DNA of 64,000 nt from Veillonella sp. (GTDB lineage Bacteria > Bacillota > Negativicutes > Veillonellales > Veillonellaceae). Location: NCBI RefSeq assembly GCF_018381775.1, contig NZ_JAGZRH010000009.1, forward strand, positions 22,518 to 86,517, given 5' to 3'. Below, piece by piece: positions 36,974 through 43,470 of the stretch (position 1 is its first letter; each line of letters begins with the position of its first letter). Position numbers and translations under genes: made by a program. The notes below the pieces were generated by a model, which saw nothing but the letters and a program-made list of their open reading frames with translations, was not told where the DNA came from and made no database searches.

Positions 36974-38278
36974 ATGTTCCAACTCGGTAAATCTGAAAAG
37001 GCCTTTGAAGAGGCTAAACGTTATATGCCAGGCGGCGTAAACAGTCCAGTTCGTTCCTACCGCAGTGTAGGTTCTAACCCTCCGTTTATTAGCAGCGCTA
37101 GCGGTAGCCGTATTTATGATATCGACAACAACGAATACATTGACTATGTGTTGAGCTGGGGCCCTATGATTTTGGGCCATGCGAACCCTGAAGTTATTGC
37201 TAGCTTGCAAGAGGCGATTCCTCGCGGCACTAGTTATGGTGCGCCTACACTACTAGAAACAGAATTGGCTAAAAAGGTACAAGCCTTCATGCCATCTATG
37301 GAGGTTATCCGCCTCGTTAACTCTGGTACAGAGGCGACTATGAGTGCTTTGCGCGTGGCTCGTGGCTATACTGGTCGCGATCGTATCGTGAAATTCGTTG
37401 GCTGTTACCATGGTCATAGCGATGCACTTTTGGTAAAAGCTGGCTCTGGCCTTGCTACCTTCGGTGTACCAGATAGCCCTGGCGTTCCACAAGGTGTAGC
37501 AGAAAATACAATTACTTTGCCGTACAATGACTCTGATGCGGTTCGCAAGCTATTCGACGAGATCGGCGATACTATTGCGGCTATCATCGTAGAACCTGTA
37601 GCAGGTAATATGGGCTGTGTGCCTCCAGAACCAGGCTTCCTTGAAACCTTGCGCGAAGTGACTAAGGCTCATGGCGCAGTGTTGATCTTTGACGAAGTTA
37701 TGTGTGGTTTCCGCGCTAGCAGTGGCGGTGCACAAAAACGTTATAACATCAAACCTGACCTTACATGTTTAGGTAAAATCGTTGGCGGTGGCATGCCACT
37801 TGCTGTATTTGGTGGCTCTCGTGAGATTATGAACCAAATTGCGCCAGCTGGTCCTATTTACCAAGCCGGTACATTAAGCGGTAACCCGATTGCCGTTACC
37901 TCTGGTCTTGCAACTCTTTCTATTTTGCAACGGGATCCAACTATTTTCAAACAAGTAGAAGATGCAACTATTGCCCTTTGTGAAGGATTTGAACGCTTGG
38001 CAGCTCAATACAATGTGCCTGTTGTAGTACAACGGGTAGGCTCCATGTTCACAATCTTCTTCACTGATAAACCAGTTAAGAACTTTGATGATGCAGCAGC
38101 GTGCAACGAAGAACAATTCAAAATGTTCTTCCATCATAACTTGAGCCATGGTATTTACTATGCGCCAAGCCCTTATGAAAGTAACTTTGTATCTATCTGT
38201 CATAAGAGCAGTGAAATCGAACGCACATTAGCCGTAGCTGATGAAGCTTTCAAAAAAATCAGTGATACACTACTATAA
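36974..38278 (+). CDS. hemL: glutamate-1-semialdehyde 2,1-aminomutase
   Basis: Class-III aminotransferase with …LIFDEVMCGFR… (PLP-Lys region); 434 aa. Confidence 0.95.
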   Translation: MFQLGKSEKAFEEAKRYMPGGVNSPVRSYRSVGSNPPFISSASGSRIYDIDNNEYIDYVLSWGPMILGHANPEVIASLQEAIPRGTSYGAPTLLETELAKKVQAFMPSMEVIRLVNSGTEATMSALRVARGYTGRDRIVKFVGCYHGHSDALLVKAGSGLATFGVPDSPGVPQGVAENTITLPYNDSDAVRKLFDEIGDTIAAIIVEPVAGNMGCVPPEPGFLETLREVTKAHGAVLIFDEVMCGFRASSGGAQKRYNIKPDLTCLGKIVGGGMPLAVFGGSREIMNQIAPAGPIYQAGTLSGNPIAVTSGLATLSILQRDPTIFKQVEDATIALCEGFERLAAQYNVPVVVQRVGSMFTIFFTDKPVKNFDDAAACNEEQFKMFFHHNLSHGIYYAPSPYESNFVSICHKSSEIERTLAVADEAFKKISDTLL

Positions 38279-38327
38279 AAATGAGTGATACTCTACTATA
38301 AAAATCAGTGATACATTATTATAAAAT
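38260..38327 (+). repeat. three tandem copies (23/23/22 bp) of the hemL 3' terminus, each keeping (I/M)SDTLL-stop coding capacity
   Basis: R1 38260-38282 overlaps the last hemL codons and stop; R2 38283-38305; R3 38306-38327. Differences between copies are synonymous only (aca/act, cta/tta). Confidence 0.75.
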
Positions 38328-38369: not shown

Positions 38370-38831
38370 ATGCAGTTTTATAAGAACTTAAAGCGTGCTC
38401 GCGTGCGCATGGGCAAAAGCCAAATCGAAGTAGCAAAGGCCGTAGGTATCAGTAATGCGGCGCTTTCAAATTACGAAACAGGGTATCGCGAACCAGATTT
38501 AGATACACTCTGTGCCCTGTCTCGCTATTATGGATTGACCTTGGATGAGCTGCTAGATGTAAATGGAGAACAACATGAGCCCATCTATGATCTCAGTCCT
38601 GTACTCAAAAATAAATACATCGCCTATAAAGGTGAAGTATTTGAGTTGAAAGACTCACAAAAACGTGCGCTCTTGCGCGAGCTAGATAATTTATTTACTA
38701 AATTTGAGAAATCAAAGGTAGAAGATAAAAGTAGTAAGCCAAAAACGTACAAACATGGAAACCCACATATCAATCGGGCTGGCCTAGCGAGCAGTGCTGG
38801 TAGTTTAGCGGCACGACGGAATATAAAGTAG
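38370..38831 (+). CDS. XRE-family helix-turn-helix transcriptional regulator
   Basis: HTH …MGKSQIEVAKAVGISNAALSNYETGYREP… AGGTGA RBS 6 nt before the ATG at 38370; the track's GTG at 38361 is an alternative. Confidence 0.75.
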   Translation: MQFYKNLKRARVRMGKSQIEVAKAVGISNAALSNYETGYREPDLDTLCALSRYYGLTLDELLDVNGEQHEPIYDLSPVLKNKYIAYKGEVFELKDSQKRALLRELDNLFTKFEKSKVEDKSSKPKTYKHGNPHINRAGLASSAGSLAARRNIK

Positions 38832-38886
38832 TTTAATATATTACTTTGTATATTGAGGGCTTTCCTTAACTCACACAATTTAAAAC

Positions 38887-38950
38887 AAAAGCACCATCTA
38901 TCTTAGGGGAAACGATACATACGTTGGATCCAGGTAGATGGTGCTTTTTA
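38887..38950. terminator. long hairpin (GCACCATCTA…TAGATGGTGC) with a nested stem and flanking A/T runs; a bidirectional-terminator-like element at the island edge
   Basis: 10-bp perfect stem around a 34-nt loop that contains AACG…CGTT, followed by TTTTTATT. Confidence 0.55.
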
Positions 38951-39113
38951 TTATATTCATTTAAATACTTAAGTTATAGACTAAGTCGTTTTATTCTCAA
39001 AAAATAAATAAAAGATAACAATATTAAAATATCAGTTGGTGATATAAGTTGGTTTAATATATAATTAAAATATAGAAGTAAATTGAATATTTAGTGGTCT
39101 TATAGGAGACATT

Positions 39114-39542
39114 ATGAAAGTATGGAGCGGTGTAAAATCTATATTAGATCGAACACCTTTTAGGGTTAAATTTTATATTGGTTTTATCTTGATGGCATTC
39201 TTCATAATGGGACTTGTTACTTTACTTGCGTATATTAATAGACCGGGACAAATACAAAAACTAACAGTATATGAGCAAAAGTTAGCAGCTATATCGACGT
39301 ATAAAGTAAGTGAAGAGCATTTTGCTACAGGTAGAAACGGGCAAATTTATGTTTTTAAAAATACATATAAACGTGTTACTTTGGAATCGGTAAAGAATAT
39401 ACTTTCAGAAGAAAAGATAAACTGGCGTGAAGTAAATAAGAGTCACATTATAGGATATGATTTAGATGATAATATTTGGGTTGATATTACTCATGATATA
39501 AACACAAAGGCTATCATCGTTAAATTAGAAAAAGACCGATAA
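39114..39542 (+). CDS. hypothetical membrane-anchored protein (N-terminal TM, about 100-aa extracytoplasmic domain)
   Basis: AGGAG RBS. AT-rich (low-GC island). No recognisable domain. Confidence 0.5.
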   Translation: MKVWSGVKSILDRTPFRVKFYIGFILMAFFIMGLVTLLAYINRPGQIQKLTVYEQKLAAISTYKVSEEHFATGRNGQIYVFKNTYKRVTLESVKNILSEEKINWREVNKSHIIGYDLDDNIWVDITHDINTKAIIVKLEKDR

Positions 39543-39597
39543 TTAAAGCTTGTATTTATTATGTATTATCTAAACTATAAGGAGATTCAGTATATAA

Positions 39598-39846
39598 ATG
39601 GAGTTCATTGATTCTTTACTAAATTTATATAATACAAATTATGAGGTTAGCGGTGCAATTCAAGCTATAGGTCTTACTATTGCGTTTATTTGTATTCCTG
39701 AGTTGATTGGGAATCATGATAGCATAGAATCTTTTGCTCCTGCTAAGCCTATAGTGAGACGTGTAGTAAGGATTATTTTGTGTATCTTATTATTTTTCGA
39801 AATATTTACTTTGTTGGGATTGCTGATGGATAATGGACTATTATAG
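39598..39846 (+). CDS. hypothetical small membrane protein (82 aa, 2 TM)
   Basis: AAGGAG RBS and two hydrophobic helices. Confidence 0.4.
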   Translation: MEFIDSLLNLYNTNYEVSGAIQAIGLTIAFICIPELIGNHDSIESFAPAKPIVRRVVRIILCILLFFEIFTLLGLLMDNGLL

Positions 39847-40057
39847 TCTGAATTTAATGAGTCAAATTAAATTTAATATAGGGCGAGACTATTGTATTTA
39901 GTGGATGAAATTAATTAAGTCTATCAATGTAGTTGTGACTCACGTGGTTTTTACCTTTATTATATACATTAACTTCTAGTGGTGAGGTATCTTTGGAGCT
40001 AACTTATGTAGATAAATGATTTTAAGTTCGTTGATGAAATTGATTGGATGAGCTTTC

Positions 40058-40930
40058 ATGCAGATAGGGAAAAATTCAAAAAAATGGCTTGAGAGAATAG
40101 GTCTTTCTTGTTTAATAGTAGTAAGTATTATTTTGGGTGTTTGGCTTTTCTTTGCTACAAATTTTATACACCCATTTATCCACTATTTGGATCTAAGGGG
40201 AAGTATAATATATTACAAAGAGCCAACTAATATAATTGCTTCTAATGTTCTTGGTTTTGATGAAGTACGAGGGAAAATATATTATATAACTACAAATGGT
40301 ATTGGTGTATATAATGAATTAAACAACGATCATGTATTTATATTACATAAAGAGCCACCTAATGAAATCAGAATAGATGACATTACTAATGTATATCCGG
40401 AATTTAGTCGTTTCTCTGATGCGGAACAGGAGGTTTGGAAAAGTAAATTTTATGCTGACTTTAGGGAAAGAATTCCTATAGAGGAAGGCAATATAATTAG
40501 ATTTCCATTCTTTTTCTCTTACGAAACCCGTGGGATTTATAATTTAGCTACAGGTTCTAAATTATCGAAAATTGATACGTATAAAATTTCTAATAATATA
40601 TTCTATAATGTTGATTTTGGAAGCATTACTAAGATAGATTTAGAAACTGGTATAGTATGGAAGTACTATTCTAATAACTTATTAGATTATAATTTTATTA
40701 ATGAAACGGTTTTTAGTAAATCAAAAGAGTTTAGTATTAATGAATTAATCAAAGAACGAAATCATGATAAACAATTAAAAGATAAAATTATAATTATAGA
40801 TCATTATAGTCAATTTAGTCAGGATGATAAGAACGTTATAGAAGAATTGTTTATTAAGTTAGTTACTGCACGAAAGAGTATGAGTTTAAAGCCAGAACAT
40901 AAAATGGGGTTAGAAAACTATTTGGAATGA
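40058..40930 (+). CDS. hypothetical protein with an N-terminal signal-anchor (290 aa)
   Basis: Hydrophobic segment LSCLIVVSIILGVWLFFA. Tyr/Asn/Ile-rich with very low GC. Confidence 0.5.
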   Translation: MQIGKNSKKWLERIGLSCLIVVSIILGVWLFFATNFIHPFIHYLDLRGSIIYYKEPTNIIASNVLGFDEVRGKIYYITTNGIGVYNELNNDHVFILHKEPPNEIRIDDITNVYPEFSRFSDAEQEVWKSKFYADFRERIPIEEGNIIRFPFFFSYETRGIYNLATGSKLSKIDTYKISNNIFYNVDFGSITKIDLETGIVWKYYSNNLLDYNFINETVFSKSKEFSINELIKERNHDKQLKDKIIIIDHYSQFSQDDKNVIEELFIKLVTARKSMSLKPEHKMGLENYLE

Positions 40931-40954
40931 ATGAAAGTAGAGGTTGATTAGCAG

Positions 40955-41443
40955 ATGTGGAAAAAACGATTACTAATAATTAGCCTATTAGGAAATATTT
41001 TTTCTCTGTTTTTAATTGGAATCTATTTTCTAGTGAATTCCTGGTTTTTTCATGCTGAATTAGGTAGTGTGGTCGGTATAAAGCCTGATTATTTAGTTCA
41101 GTTAAATAATGAAGGTGTTTTGTATGATTATAGACAAATGATTAGAATAGCATCTGGTATAAAGTCATATAAACTGATAAACTCCTTAGAATCAGATAAT
41201 TATCATATATACAAATCAATTAATAATCATCAAATTTTTATTGGTCAAGTAGACCCTGTTCAACAAAAATATATTATTTATGATGGATATTTAGATCACT
41301 ATATATTTGTAAATCTTAAATTTAATATAGATGAAAAACAATATGATGATTTTATTGGAAGAATAAAGGTAATAGATGGTTATGAGAATGTACCTATAAG
41401 ATATCGGCGTTTAATTGAAAGTGACAACTGGGAATATCTTTAA
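40955..41443 (+). CDS. hypothetical protein with an N-terminal TM anchor (162 aa)
   Basis: TM LLIISLLGNIFSLFLIGIYFLV; no known motif. Confidence 0.5.
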   Translation: MWKKRLLIISLLGNIFSLFLIGIYFLVNSWFFHAELGSVVGIKPDYLVQLNNEGVLYDYRQMIRIASGIKSYKLINSLESDNYHIYKSINNHQIFIGQVDPVQQKYIIYDGYLDHYIFVNLKFNIDEKQYDDFIGRIKVIDGYENVPIRYRRLIESDNWEYL

Positions 41444-41502
41444 TTCTTTAGCTGCTCTACTCAATAGAACTAGTATATAGGCTGTATAAAGGACTTTGAG
41501 GG

Positions 41503-41649
41503 ATGAAAGTTAAAACAATTTATTCTGTTGGTTGGTATATATTTATAGGCTGTTTTAGCGTATGGCTAATTTGTGGACTAAGCTATAAGTTTTTATTTAA
41601 TGATGCTGTTGAGCAGTCTAGAATGGAATTGACGCAAGCCTTAAATTGA
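41503..41649 (+). CDS. possible small membrane protein (48 aa; not in the ORF track)
   Basis: GAGGGA RBS 4 nt upstream. Hydrophobic core YSVGWYIFIGCFSVWLICGL. Fills a 250-bp gap in the island. Confidence 0.25.
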   Translation: MKVKTIYSVGWYIFIGCFSVWLICGLSYKFLFNDAVEQSRMELTQALN

Positions 41650-41694
41650 TGGGCTTAAGAATTTAGACATTCCATTACGATAAAGGTAGAAATT

Positions 41695-42435
41695 ATGAAT
41701 ATAACTATTAGTGAAAGACGAAATATTGAGTTTTATTTTTTATTAATTGCCCTAGGTACATTAGAGGCTTATAGATATAATTGTATTGATTTAGATACAT
41801 TAGAATCATTAATCTATCGAATGAAGATGTTGAGTATTATTGATAAGAATAATTTATCTTCGGAATTAGAAGAAATTGTTTTACGTGGTATGGGACTAGA
41901 AGATGTTGAAGCATGGGTTAAAGGTGTTTTTCCAAGTATGGTGTTAGTTGATACGATAGATACCATTGATATAGACTGTAAGACTTTGTTGATGGATCCT
42001 AAATATTATTCTTGTTTTACTGATTTTAAATTGTTTGAATCTATAGCTGATGCTGACTTGAATTTAGAAATTGATTATGTTTCATTAGTAAACTTTGAGT
42101 TTAATATGATGATATTTCTGTTAGGATTTACATTATTACTAAGAGAAATTGATGATGAGCTTATTCAGGTACTATTATCTTTTAAGGATAATGTTTTAAG
42201 TAAAATTAAAAATCTAGGCTATAAATATTCTGAGTCATTTAAAGATGCTATTGAACTTTTTGATTTAATTGATTTCCATGAGAATAGATTTAATCCTAAA
42301 CGTCAACAGTTACTTTTGAAGAAAATTAGTATTAAACTAAGAGTGTATTTTGTCTCTGCTACTAAGGAGAAGATTGAGGCTGGTATCGATTTCTATAAAT
42401 CAGATGGTTTACTATATTATGTAGAAGCAAAATAA
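41695..42435 (+). CDS. hypothetical protein (246 aa, predicted all-alpha, acidic)
   Basis: AAAGGTAG RBS and no TM anchor. Immunity-protein-like composition (inference only). Confidence 0.45.
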   Translation: MNITISERRNIEFYFLLIALGTLEAYRYNCIDLDTLESLIYRMKMLSIIDKNNLSSELEEIVLRGMGLEDVEAWVKGVFPSMVLVDTIDTIDIDCKTLLMDPKYYSCFTDFKLFESIADADLNLEIDYVSLVNFEFNMMIFLLGFTLLLREIDDELIQVLLSFKDNVLSKIKNLGYKYSESFKDAIELFDLIDFHENRFNPKRQQLLLKKISIKLRVYFVSATKEKIEAGIDFYKSDGLLYYVEAK

Positions 42436-42726
42436 AATATCTTTATTTAAATTAGTAAATTAACTAAATTAAATCCAAGTATCCTAATAAGCTATATTAT
42501 GTATTTTATTACATAATATGGCTTATTTTATGTAGAGCTTATTTTAGAGAAGCTATAATATAAAAATAAAACTACTATATTGTGCAAACGCATATTTAAA
42601 GGTATGAAGTGCTAGAATTTTTTATTATATAATACTAAAAATTAGTGTTGCTTAAAATCTAAGTAGTTCTATTAAAATTACTAGAATTTTACGATTTTAT
42701 GAGTGTTTTATGATAAAATAAAAGGT

Positions 42727-43470
42727 ATGAATACTTCAACAACTAGGTCTATTACCTATAATGGCGACAGAATTGAATATGAGTTAACCATCAAGCGTGT
42801 GAAAAACATGAACATGCGCATTACAAAGGATGGTGTGATCCATGTGTCGGCGAATGCCTATGTGCCGGATTATAGGGTGGACAAGTTTGTTATCGAGAAT
42901 ATGCCCTTCATTGAGCGGGCTCGTTACAAGATTGATGCATTGAATGCCAAGCGCGTCGATGCGTTGCAGTATGTGAATGGTGAAAGCTTATCAATTCTCG
43001 GCATTCCCGTTACATTGCGCCTAGTTGAGCAGGATGGCAAGCCTCACATTGGCTTTGACGGAAAAGCAATCCTTACTATGGTAGTGCCTCGTGGTACGAC
43101 CTTTGATGCTAAGCATAAATTAATGCAAAGCTATTGGCGTAATTTAGGGGAGAAGGTCTTTGTTCATTGGGCAAAGGTCGTGTATCAACGCTACCACAAG
43201 CAAGGTATTGATGTGCCTATGCCAACCATAAAACAGCAGCGTATGAAGAGTCGTTGGGGTTCTTGTACGCCAGCCAAGCAGCTCATCAAGATGAACACCC
43301 GTTTATTAGAGGGGCCACAGGCGTATATTGAGTACGTTATGGTCCATGAGTTTGCTCATTTTAAATATTTAGACCATTCCAAGAACTTTCACAATCTAGT
43401 GGCACAGTTTTTGCCAGATTGGAAGGCTCGTAAGAAGTCATTGAACGTGTATTTTGCTCATCGCACTTAA
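42727..43470 (+). CDS. YgjP/DUF45-family metal-dependent hydrolase (M48/SprT-like HExxH)
   Basis: C-terminal motif VMVHEFAHFKYLDHSKNFHNLVAQFLPDWKARKK. The ATG at 42727 is preceded by AAAAGG; the track's start at 42703 is an alternative. Confidence 0.75.
   Translation: MNTSTTRSITYNGDRIEYELTIKRVKNMNMRITKDGVIHVSANAYVPDYRVDKFVIENMPFIERARYKIDALNAKRVDALQYVNGESLSILGIPVTLRLVEQDGKPHIGFDGKAILTMVVPRGTTFDAKHKLMQSYWRNLGEKVFVHWAKVVYQRYHKQGIDVPMPTIKQQRMKSRWGSCTPAKQLIKMNTRLLEGPQAYIEYVMVHEFAHFKYLDHSKNFHNLVAQFLPDWKARKKSLNVYFAHRT

Follow-up and report, generated by a model that had tools for sequence, protein, structure and literature searches.

The window analysed here is a 64-kb stretch of DNA containing a block of low GC content (38832-42702) between hemL, followed by an XRE regulator gene, and ygjP-dnaE. 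All relatives of its ygjP are from Veillonella, which identifies the organism as a member of this genus (parvula group). The block has a GC content of 27.5%, about 16 points under its flanks (43-46%): in 400-nt windows the values are 0.23-0.31 over 38800-42800, compared with 0.42-0.50 in hemL and 0.43-0.46 in ygjP/dnaE. Third-codon-position GC departs likewise, being 0.17-0.27 in the cassette genes and 0.39-0.48 in hemL, dnaE and ygjP. The initial annotation, made from the letters of the sequence, had estimated such a drop by eye, and both measures bear it out. The ORFs it had listed are all present, with coordinates and + strand correctly given, and an independent ENA gene call on an identical contig (L001) returned the same genes. 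The features are listed below, F denoting cassette families and CT the classes of CdiA C-terminal toxin region.

38254..38326, no strand assigned: tandem repeat, period 23 nt, 3.2 copies, spanning the hemL stop codon (TRF 88% matches, score 118)
38370..38831, + strand: XRE-family HTH regulator (HTH_3, E = 2e-17; GC 0.42)
38887..38948, + strand: intrinsic-terminator-like hairpin after the XRE gene (arms 38887-38903 and 38932-38948, 17 nt, 94% complementary)
39000..39095, + strand: conserved leader, presumed promoter region (82-97% identical copies in 13 other alleles)
39114..39542, + strand: cassette F8, 142 aa, N-terminally membrane-anchored (TM-like segment at residues 16-43)
39598..39846, + strand: cassette F6, 82 aa, two hydrophobic segments (present in 15 of 63 arrays)
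40058..40930, + strand: cassette F4, 290 aa, N-terminally anchored (TM-like segment at residues 10-41)
40931..40954, + strand: 3'-end scar of a cdiA-CT13 toxin gene (translates as 'MKVEVD' and stop, against '...MEVEVDK' and stop at the CT13 end)
40955..41443, + strand: cassette F13, 162 aa, N-terminally anchored, predicted CdiI-type for class CT13 (match to the L066 gene)
41503..41649, + strand: cassette F7 remnant, 48 of 143 codons, the N-terminus of a CT7-linked immunity gene
41645..41683, + strand: scar of a cdiA-CT2 toxin gene, last 12 codons and stop (100% match to residues 1629-1640 of the L018 CdiA, 'IDGLKNLDIPLR')
41695..42435, + strand: cassette F0, 246 aa, soluble acidic DUF3969 protein (PF13108), predicted CdiI-type for class CT2
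42486..42527, + strand: terminator-like hairpin closing the array upstream of ygjP (18-nt arms, 94% complementary, 6-nt loop)

A Kyte-Doolittle scan found one N-terminal hydrophobic segment in each of the 142-, 290-, 162- and 48-aa products, two segments in the 82-aa product, and a soluble 246-aa product of net charge -13, in agreement with the topologies first proposed. Domain profile searches revealed no integrase or transposase domains, no tRNA was found in the 30-50 kb region, and no direct repeats flank the block. No cassette protein matched PADLOC or PHROG, and none of those in the window matched a curated Imm family. The original description of the block, as accessory DNA of aberrant composition coding for small, mostly membrane-anchored proteins with no enzymatic motif and with no integrase, transposase or tRNA alongside, stands.

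The reading of the left flank had to be revised. The XRE-family call itself was right, but the gene had been counted as part of the island; its GC is normal and every Veillonella locus has it in the same place behind hemL (64-100% identity), with either cdiB or an immunity cassette as the next gene, which makes it the conserved left flank. Its product is a candidate regulator of the locus. The 23-nt repeat, previously taken for scars of the hemL 3' end at the left boundary, sits between hemL and the XRE gene, off the low-GC edge, and the hemL-XRE spacing is 50, 72, 95 or 118 nt in 25, 6, 10 and 2 loci, respectively, that is, 1-4 repeat copies. It is a copy-number-variable VNTR, and neither an island boundary nor an insertion scar. 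The large hairpin noticed after the XRE gene is well supported (dG -30.4 kcal/mol, z = -7.4, 0 of 200 shuffles as low), is followed by a U-run, and lies in a region kept up to ~38949 in other alleles. In the 13 other alleles with a copy, the leader stands before whichever cassette is first (F8, F13, F5, F3, F11 or F6); in L005 the conserved segment reaches 39066, in front of cdiB. We presume this leader to be the promoter of the locus. A U-rich tail comes after the hairpin that closes the array, for which dG is -21 kcal/mol (z = -5.5). The block boundaries are fixed, at ~38949 on the left and at 42618 or 42669 on the right.

All the Veillonella genomes retrieved have a hypervariable stretch of low-GC cassettes, 1.6 to >10 kb long, in the slot between hemL-XRE and ygjP-dnaE. 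Wherever both anchors are visible, the XRE gene is present together with 1.6-9.5 kb of low-GC DNA, and an empty site, with hemL-XRE abutting ygjP, occurs in none of these 42 loci. The slot content is reshuffled from a genus-wide pool of cassettes whose order differs across species, and strains with identical YgjP differ in slot genes. Because there is no empty site and the content is drawn from this pool, the slot is a resident hotspot of recombination rather than an island acquired by one strain. The initial annotation had expected an island missing in close relatives, with hemL directly before ygjP, and no relative has this arrangement; it had also named presence in all relatives as evidence to the contrary, which holds for the slot, a core feature, and not for its variable content. 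About one third of the informative genomes carry cdiB and cdiA in the slot, and the most frequent type, at 27 of 48 informative genome loci, is an immunity-only allele. The arrangement in the window is found again in further metagenomes (L082 and L086), and other alleles have arrays both upstream and downstream of cdiBA. The low GC is a trait of the cassette pool, shared by the toxin tips and the immunity genes of cdiBA-bearing alleles. One allele, L030, has an AAA_21 and RloB pair inside the slot.

The cdiB product in the allelic loci (F12) matches ShlB (2e-81), POTRA_2 and POTRA_3, and that of cdiA (F1) matches the TPS domain (2e-44), Fil_haemagg_2 (1e-29) and TIGR01901 (6.5e-18), giving a protein of ~2000 aa with a TPS domain and hemagglutinin repeats. 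The toxins are two-partner-secretion CdiA proteins (T5SS) and not the LXG, RHS or WXG toxins suggested earlier. The swappable toxin region, 115-418 residues in length, is the C-terminal part of CdiA that lies behind a conserved SYATKWN(E/D) motif; across 10 CT classes, CdiA identity drops from 75% over the 45 aa ahead of the motif to 9% over the 30 aa that follow. Full-length CdiA had no Pfam pre-toxin domain (e.g. PT-VENN) at E <= 0.01. Each toxin class is paired with a downstream family without discordance: CT0-F10 (12 instances), CT1-F0 of 260 aa (4), CT2-F0 of 246 aa (2), CT3-F8, CT6-F11, CT7-F7, CT13-F13, CT14-F2 and CT9/CT12-F21. The immunity gene mostly lies 1-24 nt behind cdiA; in a few cases it overlaps the end of cdiA, and for CT3-F8 the distance is 210 nt. 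In L068, CT14 is an Endonuclea_NS_2 domain (8e-25) and the F2 gene downstream matches the Pfam family 'Immunity protein YezG-like' (6e-11), which validates the toxin/immunity logic of the locus. Purifying selection acts on every cassette family (dN/dS 0.18-0.39).

The toxin-gene scars in the window, 21-39 nt long, come from two cdiA-CT genes. Nucleotide homology to L066 begins at 40930, which corresponds to 25 nt before the L066 cdiA stop. The F13 product is 92% identical over 162 aa to that of the L066 gene lying 1 nt after a full-length 1968-aa CdiA (CT13), and in L103 an orphan CT13 tail is directly followed by F13. From these matches F13 (family dN/dS 0.18) is predicted to be the CdiI-type immunity protein for class CT13. 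The F7 remnant is 85% identical to the N-terminus of a 143-aa gene found 3 nt after CdiA (CT7) in L043; homology to full-length F7 genes ends at 41646 in eight alleles, and the stop codon of the remnant was made at the recombination joint. The F7 end and the CT2 scar have a common breakpoint at 41645/41646, and 41645-42800 (to ygjP) is collinear with L018 and L004 (96-97%). There, a gene 12 nt after CdiA (CT2) encodes a protein 93-96% identical to F0, and in four genomes an F0 paralogue of 260 aa (~25% identical) stands behind CT1, a related toxin class; F0 (family dN/dS 0.28) is accordingly placed, by sequence and position, as the putative CdiI-type protein for class CT2.

F8 has no Pfam, PADLOC or PHROG match; its identity to the F8 product encoded 210 nt downstream of a full-length cdiA of class CT3 in L012 is 40% (E = 4e-37), and it is probably a CdiI-type immunity protein (family dN/dS 0.39). 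For F6, which was seen at this locus only (family dN/dS 0.23), no CdiA-CT was found directly upstream among the 125 other loci examined, the CdiA piece before it in L101 being an internal fragment (residues 670-713); an immunity role is assigned to it by association. F4 is present in 19 of 63 arrays (family dN/dS 0.24), has just 14 matches among 1.84 billion representative proteins, and was never directly after an intact CdiA-CT among the same 125 loci. Its AF2 model, of moderate confidence (pLDDT 68), is mainly beta-stranded with interspersed helices and has no significant PDB fold match; the structure models as a whole were of too low quality to inform the assignments. In eight other alleles F4 is preceded within ~30 nt by a 126-aa ORF, whose database copies are orphan fragments only. 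F4 is probably an immunity protein, again by association, with this orphan ORF as its candidate toxin partner.

The block is allelic with the cdiBA-bearing loci, and we consider it very probable that it is an immunity-only allele of the Veillonella CDI locus between hemL-XRE and ygjP-dnaE. An orphan immunity-protein array from polymorphic-toxin systems was among the roles proposed at the outset, and the pairing, the identities and the scars back it. The full form of the locus, present in other Veillonella genomes, encodes CdiB, a TpsB outer-membrane transporter, and a ~2000-aa CdiA with a swappable toxin tip, each toxin followed by its cognate small immunity gene and often by extra orphan immunity cassettes. 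In the window allele, cdiB and cdiA would have been lost through recombination, leaving a co-oriented array between two terminator hairpins with intact F8, F6, F4, F13 and F0 and the truncated F7. Each product is expected to bind and neutralise one CdiA-CT class from neighbouring Veillonella, so that the strain would be shielded from several toxins while lacking this weapon at this site. The anchored (N-in/C-out) F8, F4 and F13 may work at the cytoplasmic membrane or periplasm against envelope-acting toxins, and the soluble F0 in the cytoplasm. Transcription of the array would start from the conserved leader, which is found in front of cdiB too in alleles that carry cdiBA, and the XRE protein may control this transcription. 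Nowhere in the window is there a coding remnant of CdiA or CdiB of >12 codons, a result that covers these 64 kb of the genome, so a matching cdiBA elsewhere in it is possible; in V. parvula DSM 2008 there are two TPS pairs (PMC5491611).

Other readings of the block were weighed. The composition and the variation between strains with identical YgjP would suit a strain-specific island, acquired horizontally, of unknown function and with its insertion point between hemL and ygjP, but the missing empty sites, the recurrence of the same cassettes in differing order across the species of the genus, the fixed boundaries, the lack of integrase, tRNA and direct repeats, and a low GC that belongs to the cassette pool itself make this highly improbable. 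Even less probable is a membrane-based anti-phage module (abortive infection or exclusion) under XRE control, a role entertained initially. It could draw on small membrane proteins beside an HTH regulator, on weak matches of the HTH to PADLOC regulator models (HTH_VI 1e-9 and RmrA N-termini) and on the L030 pair; the HTH matches, however, are generic XRE-domain similarity, the cassette proteins themselves have no PADLOC or PHROG counterpart, and their families co-vary one-to-one with CdiA toxin classes.

That the ORFs are non-functional leftovers of a dead CDI locus, in the course of being lost, is very unlikely: cdiBA is absent, toxin-gene scars are present and one cassette is cut to 48 codons, but five cassettes are full-length, each family is under purifying selection across species, the leader and terminator are kept, and immunity-only arrays are the majority state in Veillonella species, with the same haplotype in independent samples. 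There is somewhat more room, though still a minor chance, for some cassettes, notably F4 and F6, to be hotspot cargo with another role, for instance surface or envelope proteins or accessories of CdiA delivery or resistance. Neither was found directly 3' of an intact CdiA-CT, neither has homology to other cassette families, and at 290 aa F4 exceeds the usual size of CdiI proteins. Against this, among the sequences examined both families occur only inside this locus, interleaved with immunity-position families and under purifying selection, and the conserved orphan ORF abutting F4 in eight alleles is what is expected of a toxin-tip/immunity module.

An immunity array without its weapon is a known arrangement, here in an organism where it had not been studied before. 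Polymorphic toxins linked to T5SS/TpsB have previously been noted in this genus (PMC3482391), and orphan cdiA-CT/cdiI modules have been described (Poole et al. 2011, PMC3150448; CDI reviewed in PMC9086364). The allelic Veillonella forms resemble proteobacterial cdiBAI loci (E. coli EC93/EC869) in having TpsB and a TpsA with TPS domain and FHA repeats, a sharply bounded polymorphic toxin tip with a class-specific small gene immediately after it, orphan toxin-tip/immunity modules, low-GC cassettes, and recombination breakpoints within toxin-gene 3' ends. They differ in the demarcation motif SYATKWN(E/D), in the host, a diderm Firmicute, in the arrays on both sides of cdiBA in other alleles and in the membrane anchoring of most immunity families; the window allele, moreover, lacks cdiB/cdiA and has 21-39-nt scars instead of orphan CT fragments with upstream homology.

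The T6SS orphan immunity arrays of gut Bacteroidales, known as acquired interbacterial defence clusters (PMC12247911, PMC13080023), are similar in that immunity genes persist in the absence of the cognate weapon, differ from strain to strain in a human-associated commensal, presumably protect against neighbours' toxins and, in one case, have a transcriptional regulator at their head. The secretion system is T5SS/CDI here and T6SS there, and the Veillonella array sits at one fixed chromosomal position, where the weapon itself is an alternative allele. Some Bacteroides immunity clusters are recombinase-associated or on mobile elements, whereas the window array has neither. The L068 allele, with its Endonuclea_NS_2 tip and then a YezG-like gene, recalls the YeeF/YezG pair, although the YezG-like cassette F2 is absent from the window. 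In Bacillus the YeeF-type toxin is an LXG/T7SS substrate, not a CdiA.

The F0 match to Pfam DUF3969 (PF13108) is above the gathering threshold (5e-8, 33.3 bits, cut-off 25) and corresponds to the N-terminal 70 residues. The family has no assigned function, and our literature search for DUF3969 found no paper mentioning it. Here its members stand where CdiI is expected, behind two related classes of CdiA-CT, which points to an annotation for the family.

The stretch between the hem operon and ygjP-dnaE stood out by its composition, as the initial annotation had held. In each 400-nt window from 38800 to 42800 the GC content was 0.23-0.31, compared with 0.42-0.50 in hemL and 0.43-0.46 in ygjP and dnaE; the block as a whole (38832-42702) had 27.5% GC against 40% for the whole window, and third-codon-position GC was 0.17-0.27 in the block genes and 0.39-0.48 in hemL, dnaE and ygjP. 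The six same-strand ORFs were present, and an independent gene call on L001, a public contig with 100% identity over the 9 kb compared, returned the same genes as the block. The XRE regulator ahead of the array and the large hairpin after it were likewise recovered, and the membrane topologies proposed for the cassette proteins agreed with a hydropathy scan. Basic residues close to the N-terminus of F8, F4 and F13 precede a single TM segment, which indicates a predicted N-in/C-out orientation with the ectodomain in the periplasm. The features of the region are listed here, where F numbers denote ORF families from the XRE-to-ygjP interval, CT numbers classes of CdiA C-terminal toxin tip, and L numbers the same locus in other Veillonella genomes or metagenome contigs.

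Features of the block and the XRE gene ahead of it
38370-38831, + strand: XRE/Cro-C1 HTH regulator (PF01381; HTH_3, E = 2e-17, residues 10-64)
38887-38948: hairpin 5' of the array (dG -30.4 kcal/mol, z = -7.4), with a U-run after it
39000-39095: 95-nt leader, conserved ahead of whichever cassette is first
39114-39542: F8, with 40% identity to the F8 gene behind CT3
39598-39846: F6 (82 aa)
40058-40930: F4 (290 aa)
40955-41443: F13, 92% identical to the gene 1 nt after full-length CdiA-CT13 in L066
41503-41649: F7 remnant (48 aa), the first third of F7, partner of CT7
41695-42435: F0 (DUF3969), 93-96% identical to the L018 and L004 genes that lie 12 nt downstream of CdiA-CT2
42486-42527: second hairpin, closing the block (dG -21 kcal/mol, z = -5.5)

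The intergenic gaps of the array are short, there is no strong internal terminator, and a hairpin lies at each end; from this layout of gaps and terminators we infer a single transcription unit. Both real hairpins escaped the terminator scan because of its loop limit and were confirmed by folding, and the promoter scan, which gave fewer promoter-like sites than shuffled sequence, was uninformative. In another Veillonella locus, L005, the conserved upstream segment sits in front of cdiB.

The block had also been taken for a horizontally acquired module, and its reading as a strain-specific island absent from relatives did not survive the comparison with other genomes. Searching with the ygjP product gave matches from Veillonella genomes only, and the window is 95-99% identical to the V. 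parvula/dispar/rogosae group. An XRE gene (64-100% identity) follows hemL in 42/42 loci showing hemL or XRE plus ygjP, and in all of them the XRE-to-ygjP interval is occupied by low-GC DNA (1.6-9.5 kb, GC 0.26-0.37), with no empty site among these two-anchor loci; nine further genomes have an interval of >10 kb. The sister strain L002, whose YgjP is identical, has the first two cassettes in common with the window (92% nucleotide identity) but five other genes beyond them. The low-GC interval in all 42 loci, the lack of an empty site and the divergence of L002 argue that the region is a resident hypervariable hotspot and not a strain-specific insertion. The search for the features of a mobile genomic island (integrase or transposase domains, a tRNA target, flanking direct repeats, an empty site in relatives) found none of them, and the initial observation that no integrase, transposase or tRNA is adjacent stands, with no tRNA and no recombinase domain found. 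The presumed island boundary, described as tandem scars of the hemL 3' end, proved to be a 23-nt VNTR across the hemL stop (38254-38326), present in 1-4 copies depending on the allele; hemL and XRE are 50, 72, 95 or 118 nt apart in 25, 6, 10 and 2 loci, respectively. The repeat unit, also seen in the loci L002, L009, L025 and L116, holds the last hemL codons and the stop, and it slightly changes the HemL C-terminus in some alleles (the HemL of L002 has 435 aa).

All interval ORFs were clustered into families, and gene-order maps were drawn. Two large proteins recur in many of the alleles. Family F12 (565-584 aa) matches ShlB/FhaC (2e-81) and has two POTRA domains, while F1 (up to 2169 aa) contains a TPS domain (2e-44), hemagglutinin repeats (Fil_haemagg_2, 1e-29) and a match to TIGR01901; by these domains they are a CdiB/CdiA-type two-partner secretion pair. 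Such pairs have already been noted in Veillonella by comparative genomics (PMC3482391), and V. parvula DSM 2008 has two TpsA/TpsB pairs (PMC5491611). The CdiA body is conserved up to a SYATKWN(E/D) motif, after which come variable tips of 115-418 aa: over the 45 residues leading up to the motif the 10 CT classes share 75% identity, a value that drops to 9% over the 30 that follow it. Thus these allelic loci encode a polymorphic CdiA-CT behind a conserved pre-toxin motif. Directly 3' of cdiA lies a small gene that covaries with the toxin class, the pairing being one-to-one with zero discordance; the gaps from cdiA to this gene are mostly 1-24 nt, and a few genes overlap the cdiA end.

Toxin tip classes and the families that follow them
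CT0: F10, 12 instances (114-aa orphan toxin fragments included)
CT1: F0 (260 aa), 4 instances
CT2: F0 (246 aa), 2 instances
CT3: F8, 210-nt gap
CT6: F11
CT7: F7
CT13: F13
CT14: F2
CT9 and CT12: F21

CT14 is a DNA/RNA non-specific endonuclease (Endonuclea_NS_2, 8e-25), and its partner F2 matches 'Immunity protein YezG-like' (6e-11). Together with the CdiBA pair, the switch of tips behind the motif and the strict class pairing, this gives the locus the hallmarks of a polymorphic CDI toxin/immunity locus. CT14 was the only CT class recognised by Pfam, and CT2 and CT13 had no match among PDB sequences. In the loci L021, L034 and L098 an orphan 114-aa CT0 fragment is followed by F10, and these are examples of alleles with tandem modules downstream of an intact cdiBAI, the feature described by Poole 2011; no such modules occur in the window, which has no cdiBAI.

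The F13, F0, F7-remnant and F8 genes of the window all belong to families found in the cdiI position. F0 is only ~25% identical to its paralogue behind the related toxin CT1, and its pattern of identity across CT2 and CT1 is that expected of toxin/immunity co-divergence. It matches DUF3969 (PF13108) over residues 8-76 with 33.3 bits (cut-off 25, E = 5e-8), and its homologues carry the same Pfam domain in precomputed annotation. The position of its members behind CT1 and CT2 suggests that DUF3969 may function as a CdiI-type immunity protein; our literature search found no paper on DUF3969. Scanning the six cassette proteins against Pfam, PADLOC, PHROGs and NCBIfam gave DUF3969 for F0 alone above threshold, and the PADLOC-DB defence models gave zero matches at E <= 1. 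The predicted structure of F0 was unusable (pLDDT 57), and its profile had no match among PDB sequences.

The assignments of F4 and F6 as immunity genes are less secure than those of the other cassettes. Among the sequences examined, both were found only in these arrays. In eight alleles a conserved 126-aa ORF borders F4, and we considered this ORF as a route to a CdiA partner; in a set of 5.8 billion proteins it matched solely orphan fragments of 200 aa or less, so that it is at most a candidate link to a full CdiA. No toxin tip lies upstream of F6 in any locus examined, and the CdiA piece ahead of F6 in the locus L101, a candidate partner, was rejected as an internal fragment (residues 670-713) with no toxin tip. 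A 'YYITxxGIGxY' motif that F3, F4 and F10 seemed by eye to share was also discarded, since hhalign gave a probability of 0.6% for F3 against F4 and 5% for the best F4 pair when all families were compared with one another. The predicted structure of F4 had a pLDDT of 68, and Foldseek against PDB returned vague matches, mostly beta-propeller proteins (best E-value 5e-3, TM-score 0.16).

How did the window come to carry these genes? A tblastn search of the window with all F12 proteins found no CdiB at E <= 1, a large CdiA (TPS plus hemagglutinin repeats) is absent save for a 12-codon 3' scar, and no further CdiA or CdiB coding sequence occurs anywhere in the 64 kb. Nucleotide mapping resolved the block into cassettes with discrete breakpoints, common to many alleles. 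The F7 frame breaks off at 41645/41646, where it is joined to the last 36 nt of cdiA-CT2 ('...GLKNLDIPLR*') and F0, and from this point the collinearity of the window with L018 and L004 (96-97%) extends to ygjP. The spacer ahead of F13 reads 'MKVEVD*', compared with the CT13 end '...MEVEVDK*', and is evidently a decayed CT13 end. The toxin remains in the window are these 21-39-nt tails of CT13 and CT2, with no CT fragment before F8, F6 or F4. Such scars, with no other CdiA or CdiB sequence, indicate that the allele in the window is an immunity-only one, produced by recombination inside a CDI locus. Judged by its sequence, it is a derivative of that locus and not a complete system: cdiB and cdiA are missing, but its genes are tied to cdiI positions elsewhere.

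The orphan genes appear to be maintained. Median pairwise dN/dS across alleles was 0.18-0.39 for F8, F6, F4, F13, F7, F0, F2 and F10, which points to purifying selection on the cassette families, and the exact arrangement of the window, truncated F7 included, was also present in the metagenome contigs L082 and L086. A census of 48 informative genome loci, taking one genome per species cluster, gave 27 loci with a complete interval holding immunity-type genes only (7 of which keep a short orphan toxin fragment), 15 with cdiA, 2 with an N-terminally truncated cdiA and no cdiB, and 4 with an interval of >10 kb and no cdiBA seen within it.

These comparisons establish that the block is allelic with cdiBA, that pairing is specific to the toxin class, that toxin-gene scars remain and that the cassette families are under selection. 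In the mechanism that we propose, each cassette product would neutralise one CdiA-CT class delivered by neighbouring Veillonella, and the strain, lacking this weapon at this site, would be shielded against CT13, CT2 and a CT3-like toxin at the least. The tips CT7, CT3, CT9 and CT6 are glycine-rich and hydrophobic, and with the anchored cassette proteins this makes it plausible that the toxins act on the envelope or membrane. A much broader picture is conceivable, although we consider it rather unlikely as a whole: a genus-wide, fixed-position toxin/shield hotspot where most lineages have dropped the CDI weapon and keep and reshuffle multi-toxin shields, mostly N-in/C-out membrane-anchored proteins, with the conserved XRE protein coordinating the expression of both. 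New CdiI families would then include DUF3969 and five or more unannotated families, and CT2, CT13, CT7 and CT3 would be new toxin folds. If true, many Veillonella CdiA toxins would act in the periplasm or at the cytoplasmic membrane and not in the cytoplasm, which is rarely documented for CDI.

Among known systems the nearest are the cdiBAI loci with orphan cdiA-CT/cdiI modules (PMC3150448, PMC9086364); an analogous case is that of the orphan T6SS immunity arrays in gut Bacteroidales (PMC12247911, PMC13080023). The Veillonella pre-toxin motif differs from VENN and ELYN. In Proteobacteria the orphans usually lie downstream of cdiBAI, whereas in four metagenome loci (L112, L119, L122 and L102) immunity-type cassettes are located between XRE and cdiB, upstream of the latter. 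Orphan immunity genes at polymorphic-toxin loci are an established principle, and the value of the present results is therefore in the extension to a new clade and in annotation. New here are the diderm Firmicute clade, the pre-toxin motif, the suggested function for DUF3969, several unannotated immunity and toxin families, and the predominance of membrane-anchored immunities and of immunity-only alleles at a fixed slot; our literature search found no paper on CDI immunity arrays in Veillonella. This genus settles early and abundantly in the human mouth and gut, and its strain competition is largely uncharted, and the locus offers a concrete, testable CDI map in a diderm Firmicute, with ~10 toxin classes and ~20 candidate immunity families. 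That immunity-only alleles outnumber armed ones suggests widespread defensive 'cheating' or herd immunity, in parallel to the Bacteroides T6SS immunity arrays.

Several individual loci deserve mention. The interval of L052 is only 1.6 kb long and has two minus-strand ORFs (L052:823-1881) of 141 and 177 aa, which lack a Pfam match and show no relationship to the remaining cassette families. V. parvula strain f34 has no cdiB; between XRE and an N-terminally truncated cdiA it carries genes for an AAA_21 ATPase (4e-23) and a protein similar to RloB (5e-9) (L030:2118-4013), a pair that resembles an anti-phage defence system and looks to have entered this hotspot too. In L088 and L094 the cdiA body is joined directly to an F4 cassette remnant. 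Profile-profile comparison suggested remote kinship between F5 and F11 (probability 83%) and between F18 and F21 (58%); L009:6622-7002 and L006:143-520 are example loci of these families. V. hominis NSJ-78 (L051:2006-6878) and V. parvula UMB0371 (L062, same coordinates) carry a segment of a Tn916-like conjugative element in the AT-rich cassette region upstream of ygjP; its genes, each on the minus strand, encode TcpE, ArdA, an HTH plus Rep_trans protein, two DUF961 proteins and one that is FtsK-like. Fragments of an IS200-type transposase (Y1_Tnp, 1e-21) occur at the ygjP-proximal end of the array in L019:9513-9800, L060:59-346 and L014. Finally, many MAG contigs stop a short way upstream of ygjP, among them L003, L006, L008, L011, L017, L037, L041, L045 and L057, where ygjP lies 100-800 nt from the contig end, which suggests that the hypervariable array routinely breaks Veillonella metagenome assemblies and flags the locus as a slot at which MAG assemblies appear to break.
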